A stretch of 64,000 nt of DNA from Escherichia phage 04086: sequence record OR842557. One strand, given 5' to 3'. Below are positions 10,137 through 64,000 of the stretch, in pieces. The notes beneath the pieces were generated by a model that saw nothing but the letters and a program-made list of their open reading frames with translations, ran no database searches and was not told the DNA's origin. Made by a program: the position numbers and the translations under genes. Numbering within the stretch: the stretch's first letter is position 1; every line of letters begins with the position of its first letter.

Positions 10137-11417
10137 TTAGTTTAATTCAGTCAAAACTTTAGGAAGTTTCACACCAAGCAATACAGACATATCAGAACGT
10201 CCAGCCATCAAATCCATATTAGTCGCATCAATAATACGGGCTTGTTTATCATCAGCAGTAACCGTATAAGGGTTAGCAGCCAGTGCATAACGAACCATTA
10301 ATGCAATAGATGGTTGCAGGCTTTCAGGGTCAACGACCACTTTAAATGTACCTACATGTTCAGGGTCAGCCAAATCAAGGCCTTCTGTATACGGCGCATA
10401 GAACAAAGAACCTACTGCTTCTTTCCCACCAAATTCCTCTTTAACACCTACAGTAACATAATCAATTGGCGTGTTGGTATCACAATACAGAGGCAAACCA
10501 TTTTCCAGGAATCCGTATGCACTTGCAGAAAGATATTTGTCATTCTGTGGGGTATGTCTCAACCATCCGGAACCAGCCAGAACAGCAGCTACACGAGTAC
10601 TCGCTACTACATAAGTTGCCGTATAAGAGGTTGCGCGCTGGATATGAGAAACCATTTCACACACCAATTCATAAAGCTTGCGAGAAGCTTCCGGTGAGTT
10701 AGCATAACTCAGGTCAATTAAGCCATCATCACACAAACCTTCAACTTTATAACGCTTGGAAACCGTAACCAGGGACTGAAGAATATCTTTGTTGATTTCA
10801 TCAGCCATTTCAGTAGCCAGGAGGTCTTCCAAGAAATTAGGGGCATCGAAACCATTTGCTTCTAGGTCTTGAGCCAGTTCTACAGTAACAGTACTCTTCA
10901 ACTTACGGGATTTAACCGGAGCGTTCCATTTATTAACGATGAATCTGGCTTCAGAGATATCTACTTCTTGAGGACCTTCAAAACGCTCAGTCAGTGCGGC
11001 TTCGGACATAATACGGATAGTCAACTTAACAATAGCTTCTTGAAGTTGTTCGTATTCATCACCAGTAGCACCGGCAAATGGTGATGCTACCAAAGCTTTA
11101 TAAACCACGTTTTCAAATTGGAACAAATCATCTTTAGCATAAACAGCACCTGCAGTGAAAACCGGGATAGTGGCACGGTCTTTAGCGGATACTGCGCCTG
11201 AATAAGTAGCACCCGTCTGGAAAGATAATTCGTCTTTTTCTGTAAGATATTTGATACCATATAGAGCAGCCAAAGGTTGGTTAGTACGCTGCTGAGCTAC
11301 AAGGTCGGTATAAACAAGTTTGGTCGTAGCTCTGGTTAAAGCTACTAAATTTGGACGACCAATCGAAGAACTCGAAGTAATGGTCGACTCTTTTAAAAGG
11401 TCGTTAATTTTAGCCAT
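10137..11417 (-). CDS. 24: Head vertex protein gp24
   Basis: 426 aa (T4 gp24 427 aa); gp23-like paralog located next to gene 23. Confidence 0.85.
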   Translation of the reverse strand: MAKINDLLKESTITSSSSIGRPNLVALTRATTKLVYTDLVAQQRTNQPLAALYGIKYLTEKDELSFQTGATYSGAVSAKDRATIPVFTAGAVYAKDDLFQFENVVYKALVASPFAGATGDEYEQLQEAIVKLTIRIMSEAALTERFEGPQEVDISEARFIVNKWNAPVKSRKLKSTVTVELAQDLEANGFDAPNFLEDLLATEMADEINKDILQSLVTVSKRYKVEGLCDDGLIDLSYANSPEASRKLYELVCEMVSHIQRATSYTATYVVASTRVAAVLAGSGWLRHTPQNDKYLSASAYGFLENGLPLYCDTNTPIDYVTVGVKEEFGGKEAVGSLFYAPYTEGLDLADPEHVGTFKVVVDPESLQPSIALMVRYALAANPYTVTADDKQARIIDATNMDLMAGRSDMSVLLGVKLPKVLTELN

Positions 11418-56905: not shown

Positions 56906-57138
56906 GCATTGCAATTTATATTAAATCTGAGTCATGTGATTCTTATCTGTATTCCTATGATACCGGAACATCAGAAGAGAAAATCAAAGAAGATTTAGAA
57001 AGCGATATGGATATGTTCTGTCCTATTGGTGACTATATGCTTCAAGTGTCTGATAATGAAAGTCCATCATCAGAAAATAGACTTCAAATTATTATGCAAG
57101 ATATTTTTAAACAATCATGGGAACGAGACGATGGGTAA
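56902..57138 (+). CDS. Hypothetical acidic protein
   Basis: 78 aa ORF with coupled start. Confidence 0.4.
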   Translation: MSIAIYIKSESCDSYLYSYDTGTSEEKIKEDLESDMDMFCPIGDYMLQVSDNESPSSENRLQIIMQDIFKQSWERDDG

Positions 57139-57580
57139 GAAAGCTAAGGAATCATCGGCAGGTATTTTGTTCATGACCGTTGATAAAGAACTGGTCATGG
57201 GTCGTGTAACAGGCTCTCGTAATCCAGAGAACATGCGTCATAAATGGGACATTCCTAAAGGTCATGTCGAACCAGGCGAAGAGCCTATTCAAGCGGCAAT
57301 GCGCGAAACCGAAGAAGAGATTGGATTCACAGCATACGATCCTGCGTTCCTGAAAGACCTAGGTGAGTTCAAATATTCAAGCAATAAGAATCTACATCTG
57401 TTCTTATATACAGTGCCTGTGGAACACGAGCAGTTCAAGGATTGCAAATGTACGGCTTACCATACGTTCCCTGATGGTCGCACGGTTCCTGAATTCGATG
57501 CGTTCGCTTTGATTAAACGTCCGCAATGGGAATATGTCATGGGCCCGTCGATGTATAAAGTTTTGAGTTCGCTCTTTTGA
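57131..57580 (+). CDS. nudE: Nudix hydrolase (NudE-like)
   Basis: Nudix box GHVEPGEEPIQAAMRETEEEIGF; ORF track 57026, ATG at 57131; lies upstream of e as T4 e.1. Confidence 0.8.
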   Translation: MGKKAKESSAGILFMTVDKELVMGRVTGSRNPENMRHKWDIPKGHVEPGEEPIQAAMRETEEEIGFTAYDPAFLKDLGEFKYSSNKNLHLFLYTVPVEHEQFKDCKCTAYHTFPDGRTVPEFDAFALIKRPQWEYVMGPSMYKVLSSLF

Positions 57581-57593
57581 TATAAATACCCGT

Positions 57594-58346
57594 ATGAATT
57601 ATTTAAAAATATATGAATCTTTAATAGAATCCACTATTAAAAGACCTCACATATGTGGGTACACCGAAAAACATCATATTTTACCGAAATCGATGGGTGG
57701 TAGTGATTCTATTGATAACTTAGTCGACCTCACCGCCCGAGAACATTTTATTGCACACCTATTATTGGCACGGATTTTTAAAAATCGCGAAATGTGGTCC
57801 GCTGTATATATGATGGCTTCAACAAGCTTGTCAAACTCTGACAGACATAGATGTTCATCGCATTTGTACGAATTATTGCGAGAACGTGCATCAATATATA
57901 ATTCAGGTGAAAATTCTCCAAATTGGGGAATTAAACGTTCCGAAGAAACACGATTAAAAATGTCAATTTCGAAAATGGGTTCCAAAAATCCAATGTATGG
58001 GATTCCTCAATGCTCGGAACACACCAACAAAATTAGTCTTGGTGTTATTGAAGCTTTTAAAAATCCGGAAATAAAAGAGCGACATAGGCAAAGTGTTTCC
58101 GGGGAACTCAATGGGTTTTATGGAAAGAACCATTCCGAAAAAAGTTTGGAAAAACAACGGAATGCAAAACGGAAAGGATTTCCTTGGGACAATTATTCAG
58201 AATTGTACCCAATTTGGGTTTCATTAAATTGTCCCAAACATCCAACATTCACAAATGAACTTGTTAAATTGGGATATCCTAAAAAGAAACTTGTTCGAAT
58301 AGTGGAAGAATTTAAAAATGAATATCTTCGAAATGTTACGCCTTGA
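57594..58346 (+). CDS. HNH homing endonuclease between nudE and e
   Basis: Motif [31 protein letters not shown]; N-terminus [11 protein letters not shown] paralogous to 43362..44012. Confidence 0.8.
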
Positions 58347-58806
58347 TGAAGGCTGTAAATTGGACTTATATAAGGATACTGAGGGCTACTATACTATTGG
58401 CATTGGCCAATTGATTACTAAGAACCCTTCTAAAGATGTTGCTCGTGCTGAACTTGATAAGCTTATGGGTCGAGTTTGTAATGGTCGTATTACTATGGCT
58501 GAAGCTGAACAACTCTTTAACCGATCGGTTGAAAATGCTCGTAGAGCTATTCTGCGTAATCCTAAATTGAAACCTGTTTATGATGTACTGGACGAAGTTC
58601 GTCGTTGTGCTTTAATTAACATGGTCTTCCAAATGGGTGAAGCAGGCGTAGCAGGGTTCACTAACTCTTTACGTATGCTCCAACAGAAACGTTGGAACGA
58701 TGCGGCAGTTAACCTGGCTCAATCCCGTTGGTATAAACAAACTCCTAATCGTGCTAAGCGTGTTATCGCCACCTTTAAAACCGGCACATGGGCTGCTTAT
58801 AGATAA
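58318..58806 (+). CDS. e: Endolysin (T4 lysozyme, gene e)
   Basis: 162 aa; [11 protein letters not shown], catalytic Glu11/Asp20 context [13 protein letters not shown], and [29 protein letters not shown] match T4 lysozyme. Confidence 0.97.
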
Positions 58807-58811
58807 AAGCA

Positions 58812-58860
58812 GTTTACATCTCCTGTAGTCATGATACTATAGACCTATCAACTACAGGAG
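58812..58860 (+). promoter_or_regulatory. Early promoter stem-loop cassette (GTTTAC-N17-TACTAT inside CTCCTGTAG / CTACAGGAG hairpin)
   Basis: Near-identical copy at 61428-61478; directly upstream of denV. Confidence 0.6.
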
Positions 58861-58868
58861 ATTAAAAA

Positions 58869-59276
58869 ATGACTCGTATCAACCTTACCTTAGTATCTGA
58901 ATTGGCTGACCAACACTTAATGGCTGAATACCGTGAACTCCCACGGATTTTTGGTGCGGTTCGCGAACGTATTGCCAAAGGGCAAGGCTTCTCTGATATC
59001 CCTAAAGACTTCCGCCTTGGTGCAGGGCACGTCAAGTTCTTTTATGTCAAAATTGGATTTTTGTTCTTGCGACAAAATGCAATAATTGAGGAACTTCTGA
59101 AGCGTGGTTACCAGATTCAAAATACCCATGTAGACGTAGCGGATATTCCATTACGGCTCATGAACGATTTCACCCCATCCGAAGCTGATATAGCTTTAAG
59201 CCAAGCTCGATTGGACGAAAAAATTGCACAACGCCCTACCTGGTACAAACATTACGGCAAGGCTATTTACGCTTAA
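58869..59276 (+). CDS. denV: Endonuclease V (pyrimidine dimer DNA glycosylase)
   Basis: 135 aa; [26 protein letters not shown] and C-terminal QRPTWYK.YGKAIYA match T4 DenV. Confidence 0.93.
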
Positions 59277-59318
59277 TTAAACCCGTGATAGAATACTTCT
59301 ATCAACTTAAGGAATAAT

Positions 59319-59678
59319 ATGAAAACTTACCAACAATTTATTACTGAATCTACTCAGCGCATTAACGAAGCTATGTCTCCTGAACAGTTGGCTAAAGCTA
59401 AAGAAGGGCTGAACCCGTCCGAAGTCTTTAAAGTTACAGGTAAAGATTTCTCTTCCATGGCCACTAACCAAAGTCTGGCTAAAGAACTTAAATCTAAATC
59501 TAACTTCATTCATGCTACATGGAATGGTGATTCTCTTACTTCAATAAGTGTGTACAATAAAAAAGGTCTCCTTAAGAGTTCTTATGGCGCGGATGCCATC
59601 CGTGTTTCTAAATCAGATTGGCATAAAAACACTACTAAAGCAGAAAAACCTCATAACCCGGCACTTGACCATCTTTAA
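59319..59678 (+). CDS. Internal-protein-like protein with capsid targeting sequence
   Basis: N-terminus MKTYQQFITE; 119 aa; RBS taaggaataatATG. Confidence 0.6.
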   Translation: MKTYQQFITESTQRINEAMSPEQLAKAKEGLNPSEVFKVTGKDFSSMATNQSLAKELKSKSNFIHATWNGDSLTSISVYNKKGLLKSSYGADAIRVSKSDWHKNTTKAEKPHNPALDHL

Positions 59679-59686
59679 GGAATAAT

Positions 59687-59944
59687 ATGAAAACTTACCA
59701 GCAATTTATCGCAGAATCCACTTTAGTTTCTAAACGTTGGAATATGATTGTAAACGTTAAACCTTCCGGCACTGAAGTTTCTATGGCCGACCCTAATGAT
59801 GACGAACTTGAGCACGCTTTTAGCTCTAAAGAAACTGACGAGAAAGTGGTTAAGCAACTGGTTGCTGATGCAGACCAACTTCGTAAAGTAGCAGATGTTG
59901 TTAAGCTGTTTACTAAGAAAGGTTTTAAACACGAAGAGCGTTAA
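59687..59944 (+). CDS. Internal-protein-like protein with capsid targeting sequence
   Basis: N-terminus MKTYQQFIAE; 85 aa; same RBS context as 59319. Confidence 0.6.
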   Translation: MKTYQQFIAESTLVSKRWNMIVNVKPSGTEVSMADPNDDELEHAFSSKETDEKVVKQLVADADQLRKVADVVKLFTKKGFKHEER

Positions 59945-60101
59945 TTAGCATTTTAAATGGGAGCAAGCTGGACCTCGCAATTCTGTGAGGGACTCCCGCC
60001 AACCTGTAATAAGGTCGAGCCCAAGTGCGGTAATGGGTAAATGCAGAAAGGGACGAATTAATGTGCCAAGGAATGGCCCCTCCACTTAAAAAGAGACAAT
60101 T
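59945..60101 (+). other. GC-rich structured non-coding segment (candidate small RNA or leader)
   Basis: 157 nt without ORF; nested inverted repeats (gggag..ctccc, cctcg..tgagg); GC content well above flanks. Confidence 0.2.
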
Positions 60102-60644
60102 ATGAAATTTTTAACCGGTAGTTATCTATCCCTGATGAATGCTTTTGCAAACCATTCTGATGCTAGAGTAGAACACATTTGTAATAGTGGGTTTTATGTA
60201 CCTGATTCACAAACCCTGTTTAAAGAATGCTGCACCTTAAAACTTGATGGTGGGCGCCAATCCGGTAAAACTAAAGCAGTATCCATTTTTGCCACAGAAT
60301 GGTTAGCTAATGGCGGCTCTATTGTTATTTTATCTAATAACACGGCATATGCCAATGTTTCGGCTAGTGCAATCCGAAAGGAATATTTTAATAACCATAC
60401 AGAAAGTATTAAGTACCGTTTGTACACTGATTCTGTTCGTAGTTTTATTGGTAATACTGCATGCAAATTCCGTGGATTATCGCTTTCACGTGTTCTGTAT
60501 ATAATTGATGAGCCTGTTAAAACACCTAATATGGATAAGATTTATGATGCCCATATAAAGGTGGTGCAACATTGCTGTCATGCATCATGTGTCGAAACCA
60601 ATCAAACTGCTCGTCCTCTGTTCTTTGTGATAGGAATGCAATGA
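60102..60644 (+). CDS. Small P-loop NTPase-like protein
   Basis: 180 aa; Walker A-like GGRQSGKT and Walker B-like VLYIIDEP. Confidence 0.45.
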   Translation: MKFLTGSYLSLMNAFANHSDARVEHICNSGFYVPDSQTLFKECCTLKLDGGRQSGKTKAVSIFATEWLANGGSIVILSNNTAYANVSASAIRKEYFNNHTESIKYRLYTDSVRSFIGNTACKFRGLSLSRVLYIIDEPVKTPNMDKIYDAHIKVVQHCCHASCVETNQTARPLFFVIGMQ

Positions 60645-60937
60645 TGACCGATGAAGAACTTTTTGAGTTCTGTTATTTCTCACGTAAGGTCCGAAGAGAG
60701 GACCTTACTGCAAATTTCGAATATGCTTATTTCTACCCGCTAGAATACGTGTTCATGACAGGGCCCTTTAAGGGCTCTCGTTTTAGATGTCATGCTCCTA
60801 GTATCCGATTAATGAAACAGGTTCCTTACTTCACTCTCGAGTTCATCTCAGGGCCTTGTAAGGGTATTATTACTCGTAGTCTCTTGACTTATGACCAAGA
60901 GATTCATATGATTTCTGACTGGAAAAAATATGTCTAA
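60641..60937 (+). CDS. Hypothetical protein
   Basis: ORF track 60572; ATG at 60641 overlaps the upstream stop (ATGA); 98 aa. Confidence 0.4.
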   Translation: MMTDEELFEFCYFSRKVRREDLTANFEYAYFYPLEYVFMTGPFKGSRFRCHAPSIRLMKQVPYFTLEFISGPCKGIITRSLLTYDQEIHMISDWKKYV

Positions 60938-61148
60938 ATTGACAATTGAAGGTTCTGAAGAAGCTCTGAAAAGATTTGTTGAATGGCTTAATGGACCAGG
61001 TGAACAAGACTTTCTGGAAGTCTGGGATGGCGGTCGGTGGAATGGTAAAGAAATGATTTACCCGACTACCTATATCTCCGTGCAAGGTTGGACTGAAGGC
61101 CTTCGTTTGGTAGAATATGATATCGCAACTGGCGAGGAAGTGAAATGA
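60930..61148 (+). CDS. Hypothetical protein
   Basis: 72 aa coupled ORF. Confidence 0.4.
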   Translation: MSKLTIEGSEEALKRFVEWLNGPGEQDFLEVWDGGRWNGKEMIYPTTYISVQGWTEGLRLVEYDIATGEEVK

Positions 61149-61423
61149 TTGAAGATATCAAGGGTTACAAACCACATACCGACGATAAAATCGGTAAAGT
61201 GAATGCTATTAAAGATGCCGAAATTCGGTTAGGGCTGATGTTTAAAGCTCTAGAAGAAGAACATGTTACCTATTATATGAACTTAGATACCGAAGAGGTT
61301 TCTGAACAAGAACTAGACCAGGCTCATGAACGCATTACCCAGATTCGTAATGCAATTGACCGTCTTAAAGAAGCTAGTATGTGGGCTTGTCGTTCTGTGT
61401 TCCAACCAGAAGAAAAGTACTAA
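61145..61423 (+). CDS. Hypothetical protein
   Basis: 92 aa coupled ORF. Confidence 0.45.
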   Translation: MIEDIKGYKPHTDDKIGKVNAIKDAEIRLGLMFKALEEEHVTYYMNLDTEEVSEQELDQAHERITQIRNAIDRLKEASMWACRSVFQPEEKY

Positions 61424-61427
61424 AGCA

Positions 61428-61478
61428 GTTTACATCTCCTGTAGACGTGGTACTATAGACCTATCAACTACAGGAGAT
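61428..61478 (+). promoter_or_regulatory. Early promoter stem-loop cassette, near-identical to 58812-58860
   Basis: agcagtttacatctcctgtagacgtggtactatagacctatcaactacaggagatta. Confidence 0.6.
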
Positions 61479-61484
61479 TACAAA

Positions 61485-61943
61485 ATGTCAGAAATTAATT
61501 CAGAAGTATTCATCCGCCGCAACAAATTACGTCGTCAGTTCGAAACCGAATTCCGCGAACTGAATGCGTCCATCAAAAAAGCCGCCATTAAGAGCGGAGT
61601 CCCAGCCTTCTTTATTAAGTACTCTAATCACTTGTTAGACCGTGCTATCCAACGTGAAATCGACGAAAAATACGTTTTTGCTTTATTCAAGCAACTCCAT
61701 AACCATGTTAAAGAAATTCATGAATTTTTAATCCAGGAACCTCTGCCTGATGTAGAATCCGAAATTGTCCCTGGTAAAGTGTATCGCCCATTGCGTCTCG
61801 AAATTACCGATAAAACCTTATGGTTGGGTATGACCGTAGACCGTAAACATCCTGATAAAGGATACTCGTTAAAATGTCGTATGGCATTTGTTAACTCTAA
61901 ACGTTTAGAAGGTAAAACCAGCACGAAAGTAATTTACTTGTGA
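61485..61943 (+). CDS. Hypothetical protein
   Basis: ORF track 61326 overlaps the promoter; ATG at 61485 (MSEINSEVF) after RBS caggagatta; 152 aa. Confidence 0.45.
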   Translation: MSEINSEVFIRRNKLRRQFETEFRELNASIKKAAIKSGVPAFFIKYSNHLLDRAIQREIDEKYVFALFKQLHNHVKEIHEFLIQEPLPDVESEIVPGKVYRPLRLEITDKTLWLGMTVDRKHPDKGYSLKCRMAFVNSKRLEGKTSTKVIYL

Positions 61944-61950
61944 GGACAGT

Positions 61951-62685
61951 ATGGAAACTATAAAATATCCATATGACTACTATAAAATAATAAATGACGC
62001 CTTATCTAGGGATACACCTAATGATGCCTATACAGAAAAGCACCATATAATACCGAGTTGCGTTGGTGGTCCTGACACTCAAGACAATTTAGTTGAGCTT
62101 TATGCTGACGAACATTATTTGGCCCATATGTATCTAGCCAAAGCTAATCCAAACCACTATGGGTTGAATTTTGCTTGGCTAAATATGAGCTCTACTTCAA
62201 ATTCAAAACAAAGGTCTTATTTTGTAGATTCTGAAAATTATAAGTTGGCTAAAGAATCATTTTCAAAATTGCAATCTATTAATAAAATTTTATTTTTCTC
62301 TAAAAAGGAAAATAGGGCTGCTCATTCAATGGCTTTAATAAAGTATTTTGAAAAGGAAGGCTCTAAAGAACGGCTCAAAGAAATTTTAAATTCGCCAAAA
62401 GTAAAAGCTAAAATGTCTGAAAAACGGGTTAAGTATTTTGAAAATCCTGAAAATAGACAAAAATTTAAAGCCATACAAAATTCTAAAGAAACTATAGAAA
62501 GGAAAAAAGCCTCTTTGCGGAAATCCCCTATATGGCATGAACCGATGTATTCACAATTATATAAATTATGGGTAGATAATAATAAACTCAAGTGTGGAAG
62601 ATTTAGTAAAATCGCAATTAAGAACGGCTTCCCTAATGTAGATTACCGAGGACTTATTGATTATGATTTTTCTAAAAAAACTTAA
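61951..62685 (+). CDS. HNH homing endonuclease (third copy, more divergent)
   Basis: Motif EKHHIIPSCVGGPDTQDNLVELYADEHYLAH; basic Lys-rich C-terminal half. Confidence 0.7.
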   Translation: METIKYPYDYYKIINDALSRDTPNDAYTEKHHIIPSCVGGPDTQDNLVELYADEHYLAHMYLAKANPNHYGLNFAWLNMSSTSNSKQRSYFVDSENYKLAKESFSKLQSINKILFFSKKENRAAHSMALIKYFEKEGSKERLKEILNSPKVKAKMSEKRVKYFENPENRQKFKAIQNSKETIERKKASLRKSPIWHEPMYSQLYKLWVDNNKLKCGRFSKIAIKNGFPNVDYRGLIDYDFSKKT

Positions 62686-63220
62686 ATATTCTTTAATAGT
62701 GGCTATTATGTGTGGTTCGTTTTCTGTAAGTGCAGCAGAACCCGTATTTACAGAAACCCAGCTTGATAATTTACATTATGCGTATGCTTTCGGTGAACAA
62801 TACCAAAAGTCGGGAAAGTTCAAAGAAACCCCTAATCAAAAAGGATTAGGATATATCATGGCCGGATTACTATGGCAGGAATCATCCGCCGGAATTAATC
62901 AAGGTTTAAATAAAGATAAGCACCATGCTTATGGCATGTTCCAAAATTACTTGCCTACGTTAAGAAGTCGTGTTCAACAGGTAGGTTGGAAGATGTCTGA
63001 TAAAGAAATAATTCGTATGGTCCAAAAACGACAGAACAGTGCCTCTTGGGCCTACATTGAGCTGTCTTATTGGATTGATGTTCACAAAGGTGACCTGAGA
63101 AAAGCGATTGCTTCTTATAATGCGGGCTGGAACGTCAAAGCAGGCAGTAAGTATGCTTCTGAAGTTCTAGAAAAGGCCAATTACCTAAAATCTAAAAAGA
63201 TGTTTGAGGCGGTATATTAA
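62663..63220 (+). CDS. Lytic transglycosylase (SLT domain) with N-terminal signal peptide
   Basis: Signal-like MIFLKKLKYSLIVAIMCGSFSVSA; SLT motifs LWQESSAG (catalytic Glu), YGMFQ, SYNAG; ORF track start 62657 is TTG. Confidence 0.75.
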   Translation: MIFLKKLKYSLIVAIMCGSFSVSAAEPVFTETQLDNLHYAYAFGEQYQKSGKFKETPNQKGLGYIMAGLLWQESSAGINQGLNKDKHHAYGMFQNYLPTLRSRVQQVGWKMSDKEIIRMVQKRQNSASWAYIELSYWIDVHKGDLRKAIASYNAGWNVKAGSKYASEVLEKANYLKSKKMFEAVY

Positions 63221-63577
63221 ATGATTAAGCAGATGACTATAGCGCTTATGTTGATTGCTCCGGGAGTATTAGCGTCACAAGTTGATGATAGTAATAATTC
63301 AATTGTCGAGTATGCTACCCGTACAGCAAAAGATTATTGTCATCCGAGTAATACTGAATGCATTATCGAATTCAGTTCAAAAATCACAGCTGCTTTTAAA
63401 GATGGCCAGAATGACGTAGAGCATCGCCGAATGAAAGAGAAAACTCTTTCTAAAAGATACGAGCAACGTCTAAACGTTACTGAATGTATTCCGTCTGATA
63501 AAAAGTACAAAGAAATGTGCGCGTCTATGGTAGACAGACTCGTTGACTCTTACAACCGAGGATTAAACTCTAAATGA
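63221..63577 (+). CDS. Small secreted / periplasmic Cys-containing protein
   Basis: Signal peptide MIKQMTIALMLIAPGVLAS; four Cys in mature part; coupled to the SLT gene. Confidence 0.5.
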   Translation: MIKQMTIALMLIAPGVLASQVDDSNNSIVEYATRTAKDYCHPSNTECIIEFSSKITAAFKDGQNDVEHRRMKEKTLSKRYEQRLNVTECIPSDKKYKEMCASMVDRLVDSYNRGLNSK

Positions 63578-64000
63578 TTATTGATTATATTAAGGGCGAT
63601 ATTGTCGCCCTGTTTCTTCAAGGTAATAATGTTGCGCACGGGTGCAACTGTTTCCACACAATGGGTTCAGGCGTAGCTGGACAATTAGCTAAGGCTTATC
63701 CGCCTATTCTCGCTATTGATAAAACCACTTATTTAGGCCATTTGGAAAAACTTGGCACGTTTACTCAAGCCACAGGTAATAAGGGCCAAATTTGCTATAA
63801 TTTATACACCCAATACGAACCGGGCCCTAATCTTGATTACGGTGCTTTAGTAAACTGTATGATAGAATTAAACCGTACCGCAAAGGGTCTTTTGTTTAAA
63901 CCAAGAATTTATATCCCTCGCATCGGTTGTGGTATTGCTAGTGGTGATTGGGACAAGGTTTATCAATTGATTAATTTGTTTACTCCTGATATTAATTTAG
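63574..64000 (+). CDS. Macro-domain protein (ADP-ribose binding / hydrolase family), C-terminus beyond window
   Basis: GDIVALFLQGNNVAHGCNCFHTMGSGVAGQLAKAYP parallels the macro motif GDIT..VNAAN..LGGGVAGAI; second motif IPRIGCGIASG; ATGA overlap with upstream stop. Confidence 0.7.
   Translation, partial: MIIDYIKGDIVALFLQGNNVAHGCNCFHTMGSGVAGQLAKAYPPILAIDKTTYLGHLEKLGTFTQATGNKGQICYNLYTQYEPGPNLDYGALVNCMIELNRTAKGLLFKPRIYIPRIGCGIASGDWDKVYQLINLFTPDINL

Follow-up and report, generated by a model that had tools for sequence, protein, structure and literature searches.

Two near-identical early-type promoter cassettes with an internal hairpin at denV and regB of Escherichia phage 04086

The e-to-regB locus

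The stretch of DNA analysed here, referred to as the window, comprises 64,000 nucleotides (nt) of Escherichia phage 04086 (sequence record OR842557), which by its sequence is a Dhakavirus, that is, a T4-like phage of the JS98/Bp7/WG01 group. Between its lysozyme gene e and its endoribonuclease gene regB the window contains two near-identical copies of an intergenic cassette in which a promoter of early type lies within a hairpin, one in front of denV (cassette 1) and the other in front of regB (cassette 2). The order along the locus is nudE, an HNH gene, e, cassette 1, denV, two genes resembling those of internal proteins (IP), a non-coding stretch of 157 nt, vs.8, vs.7, an open reading frame (ORF) of 72 amino acids (aa), vs.4, cassette 2, regB, a second HNH gene and vs.1. 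The cassettes, both HNH genes and all features from e to regB lie on the plus strand.

Four genes border the cassettes. The lysozyme gene e (58318..58806; Pfam Phage_lysozyme, annotated homologues) ends in a stop codon at 58804-58806 that opens cassette 1, and denV (58869..59276; Pfam Pyr_excise), for a pyrimidine-dimer glycosylase, follows it. The stop codon of vs.4 (61145..61423), a member of the Acb2 family directed against the cyclic-oligonucleotide-based antiphage signalling system (anti-CBASS; Pfam Acb2_Tad1_hairpin, E = 4e-15), opens cassette 2 at 61421-61423 and is followed by regB (61485..61943; Pfam REGB_T4, E = 5e-69), for an endoribonuclease specific for GGAG. Close relatives fall into two vs.4 allele classes, with 91-99% or ~78% nucleotide identity.

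An earlier note on this DNA had placed two near-identical promoter hairpin cassettes in direct orientation at 58812-58860 and 61428-61478. The pair was confirmed, and these intervals lie inside a repeat that is in fact longer: a direct repeat of 66 nt, with copies at 58806-58871 and 61422-61487 whose starts are 2616 nt apart and which are identical at 62 of the 66 positions (94%). The four differences are found at 58829/61445 (T/A), 58831/61447 (A/G), 58834/61450 (A/G) and 58865/61481 (A/C), the longest exact runs common to both copies are 23 and 30 nt, and identity drops off abruptly at both ends. The same note had described the intervening DNA as a block of denV, two IP genes and a P-loop operon; denV, two IP-like ORFs and a P-loop gene are indeed present, "operon" being a loose label because only vs.8 encodes a P-loop protein.

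A degenerate pattern of 53 nt, with at most 3 mismatches allowed, matched only the two cassettes in the window and nothing in 100 shuffles. Among the eight early-type promoters of the window, the denV/regB pair is 92% identical and every other pair at most 65%, several of the eight having inverted repeats of their own. In relatives, the cassette query found 10-15 BLAST places per genome. The full cassette is represented in the window by the denV/regB pair, to which one further copy from outside the window is added below.

Anatomy of the cassettes

Each copy is composed, in order, of an A-rich flank, GTTTACA (-35), the arm ATCTCCTGTAG, a TGn-extended -10 TACTAT, the segment AGACCTATCAA, the arm CTACAGGAGAT, an A-rich spacer and ATG. 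Cassette 1 (58806..58871), the putative promoter and leader of denV, was delimited from the repeat, a promoter scan, RNA folding and orthologous copies. Its -35 TTTACA lies at 58813-58818, its TG at 58832-58833 and its -10 TACTAT at 58835-58840; its 5' arm ATCTCCTGTAG (58818-58828) is complementary to the Shine-Dalgarno (SD) sequence, and its 3' arm CTACAGGAGAT (58852-58862) contains the SD GGAG at 58857-58860, ahead of the denV ATG at 58869. From the position of the -10, transcription would start near 58847. Cassette 2 (61422..61487), the putative promoter and leader of regB, was delimited from the repeat, the promoter scan and RNA folding, and shows its -35 at 61429-61434, its -10 at 61451-61456, its 5' arm at 61434-61444, its 3' arm at 61468-61478 with GGAG inside at 61473-61476, and the regB ATG at 61485. 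In both copies the promoter scan matched TTTACA-16-TACTAT and an upstream TG, and the AGACCTATCAA segment after the -10 also occurs in several other early promoters of the phage genome.

The internal inverted repeat of each copy, ATCTCCTGTAG with CTACAGGAGAT, has 11 bp and a loop of 23 nt, and brackets the -10 region. When the full cassettes 1 and 2 were folded as RNA, energies of -20.7 and -19.2 kcal/mol were obtained (z = -4.5 and -3.5, respectively), while RNA beginning just 3' of the -10 was predicted to be unstructured. A terminator scan returned neither stem, and what follows the stem on its 3' side is an A-rich tract instead of a T-run.

Conservation and origin of the cassettes

In nearly every Dhakavirus examined, one cassette stands 5' of denV and the other 5' of regB, the regB one being kept in all Dhakavirus loci inspected, and orthologues of the denV cassette are found in Dhakaviruses, Entb_45 and T4. 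Differences specific to each position are fixed across genomes, with GATTAAAA-ATG for denV and GATTACAAA-ATG for regB, and a search for gene conversion between both cassettes within genomes saw no ongoing homogenisation. These fixed differences indicate that the cassettes are long-standing orthologues, neither recently duplicated nor being homogenised. In T4, a 13-bp hairpin of unrelated sequence, with two G.U pairs, stands at the same place before regB, and in other genera the regB architecture is kept with stems of their own (CTCCTTTTAG/CTAAAAGGAG and CTCCTCTTTATG/CATAAAGAGGAG).

A third full copy was found in L033, a QL01-like IMG/VR contig, at reverse-strand position 10644 and 5' of an ORF of 174 aa (MNAKDIFSL...). 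Separated from the regB cassette by 8.4 kb on the downstream side and oriented alike, this copy falls outside the 64-kb window; its arms ATCTCCAGTAG/CTACTGGAGGT include a compensatory double change of the stem, CTCCAGTAG/CTACTGGAG.

This distribution is most simply read as the copying, within the Dhakavirus lineage, of a denV-type cassette onto regB. The near-identity of the copies may have two causes, namely selection on nearly every position (-35, stem, TGn/-10, start region, second arm and SD) and this putative copying of the denV-type cassette onto regB.

Pairing of the promoter spacer with the ribosome site

Covariation was evaluated on 16 distinct cassettes whose arms were brought into register by their anti-SD and SD cores, this anchored-arm alignment being used instead of a whole-cassette MAFFT alignment, which placed the 3' arms out of register at other stem lengths. 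Pairing was observed in 88% of the cells, compared with 37-52% when the partner was slid, and 7 of the 13 stem pairs have changed on both sides. The covariation score was 0.321 versus 0.110 in shuffles, none of 500 of which reached it. Furthermore, G.U wobbles in the cassettes of T4 regB and Entb_45 denV keep the pairing only in the sense-strand RNA. A covarying stem with G.U wobbles points to an RNA hairpin that would mask the ribosome site on read-through transcripts.

The energy of the duplex between promoter spacer and SD was bimodally distributed over 55 early promoters, and the denV/regB cassettes of the denV-type hairpin class are nearly all at or below -12 kcal/mol, in the strong group. 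Duplexes of matched spacer/SD pairs exceeded in strength those of mismatched pairs (p = 0.0075) and those with shuffled spacers (p = 5e-15). Since the 5' arm is situated between -35 and -10, RNA made from the cassette's own promoter would lack it.

Each cassette might then operate as an early promoter of T4 type, strong and enclosed by the 11-bp hairpin, with GTTTACA, TGn and TACTAT preceded by a UP-like A-rich flank. Its own RNA would start 3' of the 5' arm, leaving the ribosome site open in a translatable, A-rich leader, while RNA reading through from upstream genes would contain both arms, fold and hide that site. Expression of denV and regB would in this way be tied to the immediate-early promoter. 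The leader is also a likely RegB target. RegB is reported to cut the GGAG of its own SD, secondary structure protecting from cleavage and an A-rich 3' context stimulating it (PMC3014915), and the open cassette leader, with its GGAG ahead of an A-rich tract, corresponds in sequence to that pattern. Like the RegB-sensitive early leaders of that work, the cassettes thus combine an SD GGAG with an A-rich tract, with regB itself lying 3' of cassette 2; they differ from them in that the same leader stands before denV, which suggests a shared regulation of both genes.

Crossover junctions in the locus

Three independent indels at the e-regB locus have their junctions inside the 5' part shared by early-promoter cassettes, in the segment GTTTAC(A/T)T(C/T)TCCT. 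They are seen on comparing the window, Bp7 and dhabil with JS98, E33 with WG01, and T6 with T4. In JS98, e is followed by ...ATAGATAAAAGCAGTTTACATCTCCT-AGAATTG..., the ipIII promoter, and ipIII-orf114 by ...GTTTACTTCTCCT-GTAGGCATGA..., the denV promoter; in Bp7, dhabil and the window, a single sequence combines the left flank of the JS98 ipIII promoter with the right part of the JS98 denV promoter. A junction of the same kind distinguishes E33 from WG01, the IP gene being missing in E33.

In T6, e is joined straight to regB through the junction AATCTATAAAGTTGTTTACTTTTCCTCTTGAC, made of the T4 e/ipIII flank and the T4 regB promoter, within TGTTTACTTT, a segment common to the ipIII and regB early promoters of T4. 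The fusion removes ipIII, ipII, denV and vs.8 to vs.3, and T6 is a phage known to lack v-gene ultraviolet repair. The junction was located at positions 2807-2869 of L012 (MH550421) by comparison with L011 (T4), and is the same in two independent sequencing projects (MH550421 and AP018814).

When the window is compared with its relatives, homology repeatedly breaks off at 58791-58811 and 58866-58871, the edges of cassette 1, and at 61421, the 5' edge of cassette 2. The denV gene of the window is a minority allele, with 97% aa identity to that of Salmonella phage ABTNLS3, 95% to those of three IMG/VR phages of another group (L018-L020) and 63-68% to those of other Dhakaviruses, and the change in its similarity coincides with the ATG at the 3' edge of cassette 1. 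An extra ORF of 210 nt is found between vs.4 and cassette 2, in the slot of T4 vs.3, in some Dhakaviruses, namely E33 (L006, 5978-6187), IME08, L013 and L014, so that the 5' edge of cassette 2 is also an insertion point. Junctions elsewhere occur as well: L027 has lost an IP gene and denV relative to L028 by a junction in the IP leader ATGAAAACTT, not in a cassette. In laboratory-evolved T4, short-homology deletions remove ipIII (PMC9391042).

Interpretation and alternatives

It is likely that the denV/regB cassettes are, in the first place, conserved regulatory elements and, in the second, short-homology crossover sites, which as a by-product of their shared sequence would form module boundaries in the hyperplastic region from e to regB. 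Several considerations weigh against this proposal: (i) the anchored-arm alignment favours structure and its sequences are mutually related, the slid-register controls being clean; (ii) the stem has one mismatch in some cassettes (Bp7, dhabil, L028); (iii) the denV or regB promoters of some phages (ABTNLS3, IME08, L018-20) are without a hairpin, which is consequently dispensable; (iv) the direction of copying, from denV to regB, is based on a handful of genera; and (v) the published model of early-promoter/stem-loop cassettes (PeSLs) gives the stem-loop a terminator role (PMC2839356).

This last point leads to an alternative that is judged improbable, in which the stem-loop is chiefly a terminator or attenuator insulating each gene from upstream transcription. 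A PeSL stem-loop of RB49/phi1 cut expression of a downstream lacZ to an extent similar to that of the rrnB T1 terminator (PMC2839356), and the hairpins described here are stable, at ~-20 kcal/mol. Nonetheless, the tract after the stem is A-rich and not U-rich, the loop is as long as 23 nt, the terminator scan passed over both copies, and what stays invariant across genera is the pairing with the SD rather than a G+C-rich stem with a T-run.

A comparably small likelihood is assigned to the view that the mosaicism of the locus comes mainly from its two flanking HNH homing endonucleases, through double-strand-break repair and co-conversion of nearby markers, the cassettes being regulatory only. 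Both genes belong to phrog_655, the first lying between nudE and e (57594..58346, E = 5e-56) and the second between regB and vs.1 (61951..62685, E = 3e-36). Only PSD2002 has the same second gene, at 100% identity, and the surrounding 59959-63300 is 97.3% identical to that phage; homing-linked co-conversion is an established process in T4 phages (see the review PMC2988022). On the contrary, most relatives with cassette junctions (Bp7, JS98, WG01, E33, T4 and T6) are without an endonuclease gene here, and the junctions fall within the shared promoter segment, not at endonuclease insertion sites.

The earlier note had further suggested that recombination between the two cassettes would delete or transfer the block between them and that this explains the rearranged order of denV and the IP genes. 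The general idea that crossover at cassettes removes or brings in genes agrees with the three indels described above, and exchange between the denV/regB cassettes could remove the 2.6-kb block; for this pair, though, no Dhakavirus deletion was found. The idea of a discrete mobile block of 2.6 kb, bounded by both cassettes, moved as a unit and at the origin of the denV/IP order, seems quite unlikely, even if its direct repeats agree at 94% of positions and share exact stretches of 23 and 30 nt, T4-type recombination works on homology patches shorter than 50 bp, PeSL mini-circles have been seen in RB49/phi1 (PMC2839356), and T6 shows that loss of an equivalent block is viable. Only 3 of the 1015 phage records matching a chimeric query contained an e-cassette-regB junction, all of them T6 and none a Dhakavirus, and 0 of the 1182 matching a second chimeric query contained the vs.4-cassette-denV junction of a circle or duplication; exact-pattern scans of IMG/VR and JGI metagenomes found no exact e-regB junction of Dhakavirus type, and Dhakavirus contigs in IMG/VR were too few for a useful tally of cassette pairs and their distances. 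Relatives without the block, which the note had proposed to look for, were not encountered among Dhakaviruses, the e-denV-vs.8-regB synteny being kept in all relatives.

The reverse situation, the same block without one of the cassettes, is loosely represented by ABTNLS3. Its gene set and order are the same, with nucleotide identities of 96% for denV and 96-98% for ipA/ipB, but it has another vs.8 allele; its denV follows a T4-type ipII gene and has a different promoter without hairpin in place of cassette 1. The nearest relatives of the window also differ from gene to gene, being ABTNLS3 for denV, ABTNLsp5 and PSD2002 for vs.8, Bp7/WG01/E33 for the 72-aa ORF and WG01 for vs.4, which argues that the block has not been inherited as a unit. 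As to the denV/IP order, the only outcomes of a crossover between direct repeats are deletion, duplication and circularisation, never inversion or permutation of genes, so the order does not come from exchange between the denV/regB cassettes. It corresponds instead to two IP slots flanking denV, of which the upstream one is empty in the window, as in Bp7 and dhabil, and the downstream one is filled, as in WG01, E33 and ABTNLS3, in this case with two genes.

A bolder proposal, regarded as having just as little likelihood as the mobile block, is hairpin-directed exchange, in which small circles with anti-defence genes (IP, Acb2) would be excised and reinserted at the cassettes of co-infecting phages or, in a milder version, the cassette itself would be mobile, in which case Dhakaviruses could have gained copies of the denV cassette at regB and at a third gene, with spread of an "origin-gated" expression module. 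If the former were true, the locus would work as an integron-like shuttle without integrase; if the latter, translation would depend on which promoter made the RNA. Least probable of all is an action of the hairpin as DNA, as a cruciform or hairpin for a nuclease or recombinase at dedicated recombination sites like integron attC: the inverted repeat is conserved and covarying, and protein targeting of PeSL stems was speculated on by Arbiol et al. (PMC2839356), but the G.U (G.T) wobbles of T4 regB and Entb_45 denV pair only in sense-strand RNA, the 3' arm is always the SD, pointing to translation, the junctions lie in the -35/anti-SD homology, as plain homologous exchange predicts, and neither Pfam nor PHROGs detected an integrase or recombinase family among the nine ORFs of the e-to-regB interval or in either HNH ORF beside it.

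Relation to known systems

PeSLs flank variable ORFs in the hyperplastic regions of T4-type phages and mediate deletion, insertion and mini-circle formation (PMC2839356, PMC4122927); the model was shown for RB49/phi1 (Arbiol 2010, PMC2839356) and extended to PST/T4 and nt-1/KVP40 (Comeau 2014, PMC4122927). The denV/regB cassettes fit this model, as real but ordinary examples. Both have an early-type promoter, a stem-loop, an intergenic position and a location at indels; they share with PeSLs the order of stop codon, A/T-rich flank, early promoter, stem-loop, SD and ATG, and the direct orientation of repeats in hyperplastic regions next to indels between close relatives, and both kinds of element have been proposed or shown to mediate deletion and insertion via homologous exchange. 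The PeSL consensus of the T4 group, TTTACW-N17-TAYWAT (spacer of ~17 nt), fits both cassettes in sequence. The equivalent of a PeSL-type deletion is that of T6, between the ipIII and regB promoters, none from the denV/regB pair being present in database genomes. There are differences as well. The denV/regB stem runs from the edge of the -35 to the SD, whereas the PeSL stem is compact, G/C-rich and beside or inside the promoter; the denV/regB cassettes have no T-run and conserve the SD pairing, suggesting translational masking rather than termination; and the pair is orthologously kept, with no sign of frequent turnover.

Promoter/stem-loop elements at the IP loci of T-even phages are credited to Repoila 1994 (EMBO J 13:4181) by PMC2839356 and PMC4122927. 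As far as these two accounts of them go, those elements coincide with the present ones in the locus (e-ipIII-ipII-denV), the T4-type early promoters, the A/T-rich stems and the shuffling of IP genes, and differ in belonging to T-even coliphages, the window being from a Dhakavirus with IP genes downstream of denV.

The T4 genes e, soc, 49 and I-TevI are known for SD masking by a hairpin that contains a promoter (McPheeters et al. 1986, as reviewed in PMC3014915). In them, as in the denV/regB cassettes, the SD GGAG lies in the 3' arm of the helix and the 5' arm upstream of the start (in the cassettes, of the putative one), so that own transcripts without the 5' arm are translated and longer upstream ones are masked. 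Their nested promoter is a late one (TATAAATA) and masking delays expression, while that of the cassettes is of immediate-early, sigma-70 type (-35, TGn, -10), not TATAAATA; masking would consequently restrict expression to the early promoter. With a nested promoter that is early and not late, the cassette would work like the e/soc/49/I-TevI class without being a strict member of it. An early-promoter version of this SD-masking device was not found in the PeSL and T4 literature examined, older T4 literature excepted.

A looser likeness is to integron cassettes and phage morons, in which small accessory genes are likewise bounded by repeated regulatory or recombination sequences; here there is no integrase, attC-type site or own terminator, and general homologous recombination is apparent.

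Thus placed, the cassettes are a further, clean and well-anchored case of the modular shuffling that the PeSL model describes for T4-like phages, and leave current understanding unchanged. The locus in which they lie carries host-range and anti-defence cargo, namely internal proteins, Acb2/vs.4 and denV. A design rule is suggested, by which an anti-SD in the promoter spacer would allow only promoter-proximal transcripts to be translated; it would help annotation and engineering of T4-like therapeutic phages.

Other features of the locus

A degenerate third promoter-like cassette, TTTACG-17-TAGAAT (59266..59318), overlaps the denV stop codon and leads into the first IP gene; it is kept wherever an IP gene follows denV. 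IP-like gene A (59319..59678; 119 aa, leader MKTYQQFITE, phrog_3966) is not present in Bp7, PSD2002 or dhabil. IP-like gene B (59687..59944; 85 aa) was recognised by repetition of the leader, MKTYQQFIAE. The leader MKTYQQFI(T/A)E of both small ORFs compares with MKTYQEFIAE of T4 IPII/IPIII, and the SD and first 12 codons of both genes form a direct repeat of 48 nt, 90% identical, at 59307-59354 and 59675-59722.

The conserved non-coding stretch 5' of vs.8 (59945..60101) is slightly richer in G+C (0.48). Its blocks ACCTGTAATAAGGTCGAGCCCAAGTGCGGTAA and GTGCCAAGGAATGGCCCC are conserved from genus to genus, and its 5' part exists in two alternative versions; its homologue in T4 is annotated as the N-terminus, or 5' part, of the vs.8 coding sequence, and that in JS98, IME08 and Entb_45 includes an early promoter. 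As a candidate structured RNA it was discarded, given a folding z of 0.36 and a weak RNAalifold consensus in which the T4 row was on the wrong strand. Rfam gave nothing relevant over 57000-64000, its sole match being a chance sub-threshold SNORD45.

The vs.8 protein (60102..60644; 180 aa) has a Walker A motif, GGRQSGKT, a Walker B-like LYIIDE and a sub-threshold match to Terminase_6N. Two vs.8 allele classes exist among close relatives, with 92-99% or ~38% aa identity, and nucleotide homology breaks within the gene at ~60148 and ~60615. Downstream, vs.7 (60641-60937) and the 72-aa ORF (60930-61148) together cover 60641..61148.

Regarding the two free-standing HNH genes that bracket e..regB, they are 31% identical to each other; none of the relatives examined has the first one, which overlaps with the beginning of e.

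Finally, the early promoters at 46236, 46577, 50184 and 50642 have their own inverted repeats between or across -35 and -10, examples being AGGTCTATAG/CTATAGACCT and GGGCTC.../...GAGCCC. As these repeats do not include an SD, they represent a different subclass of promoter-embedded stem-loop.

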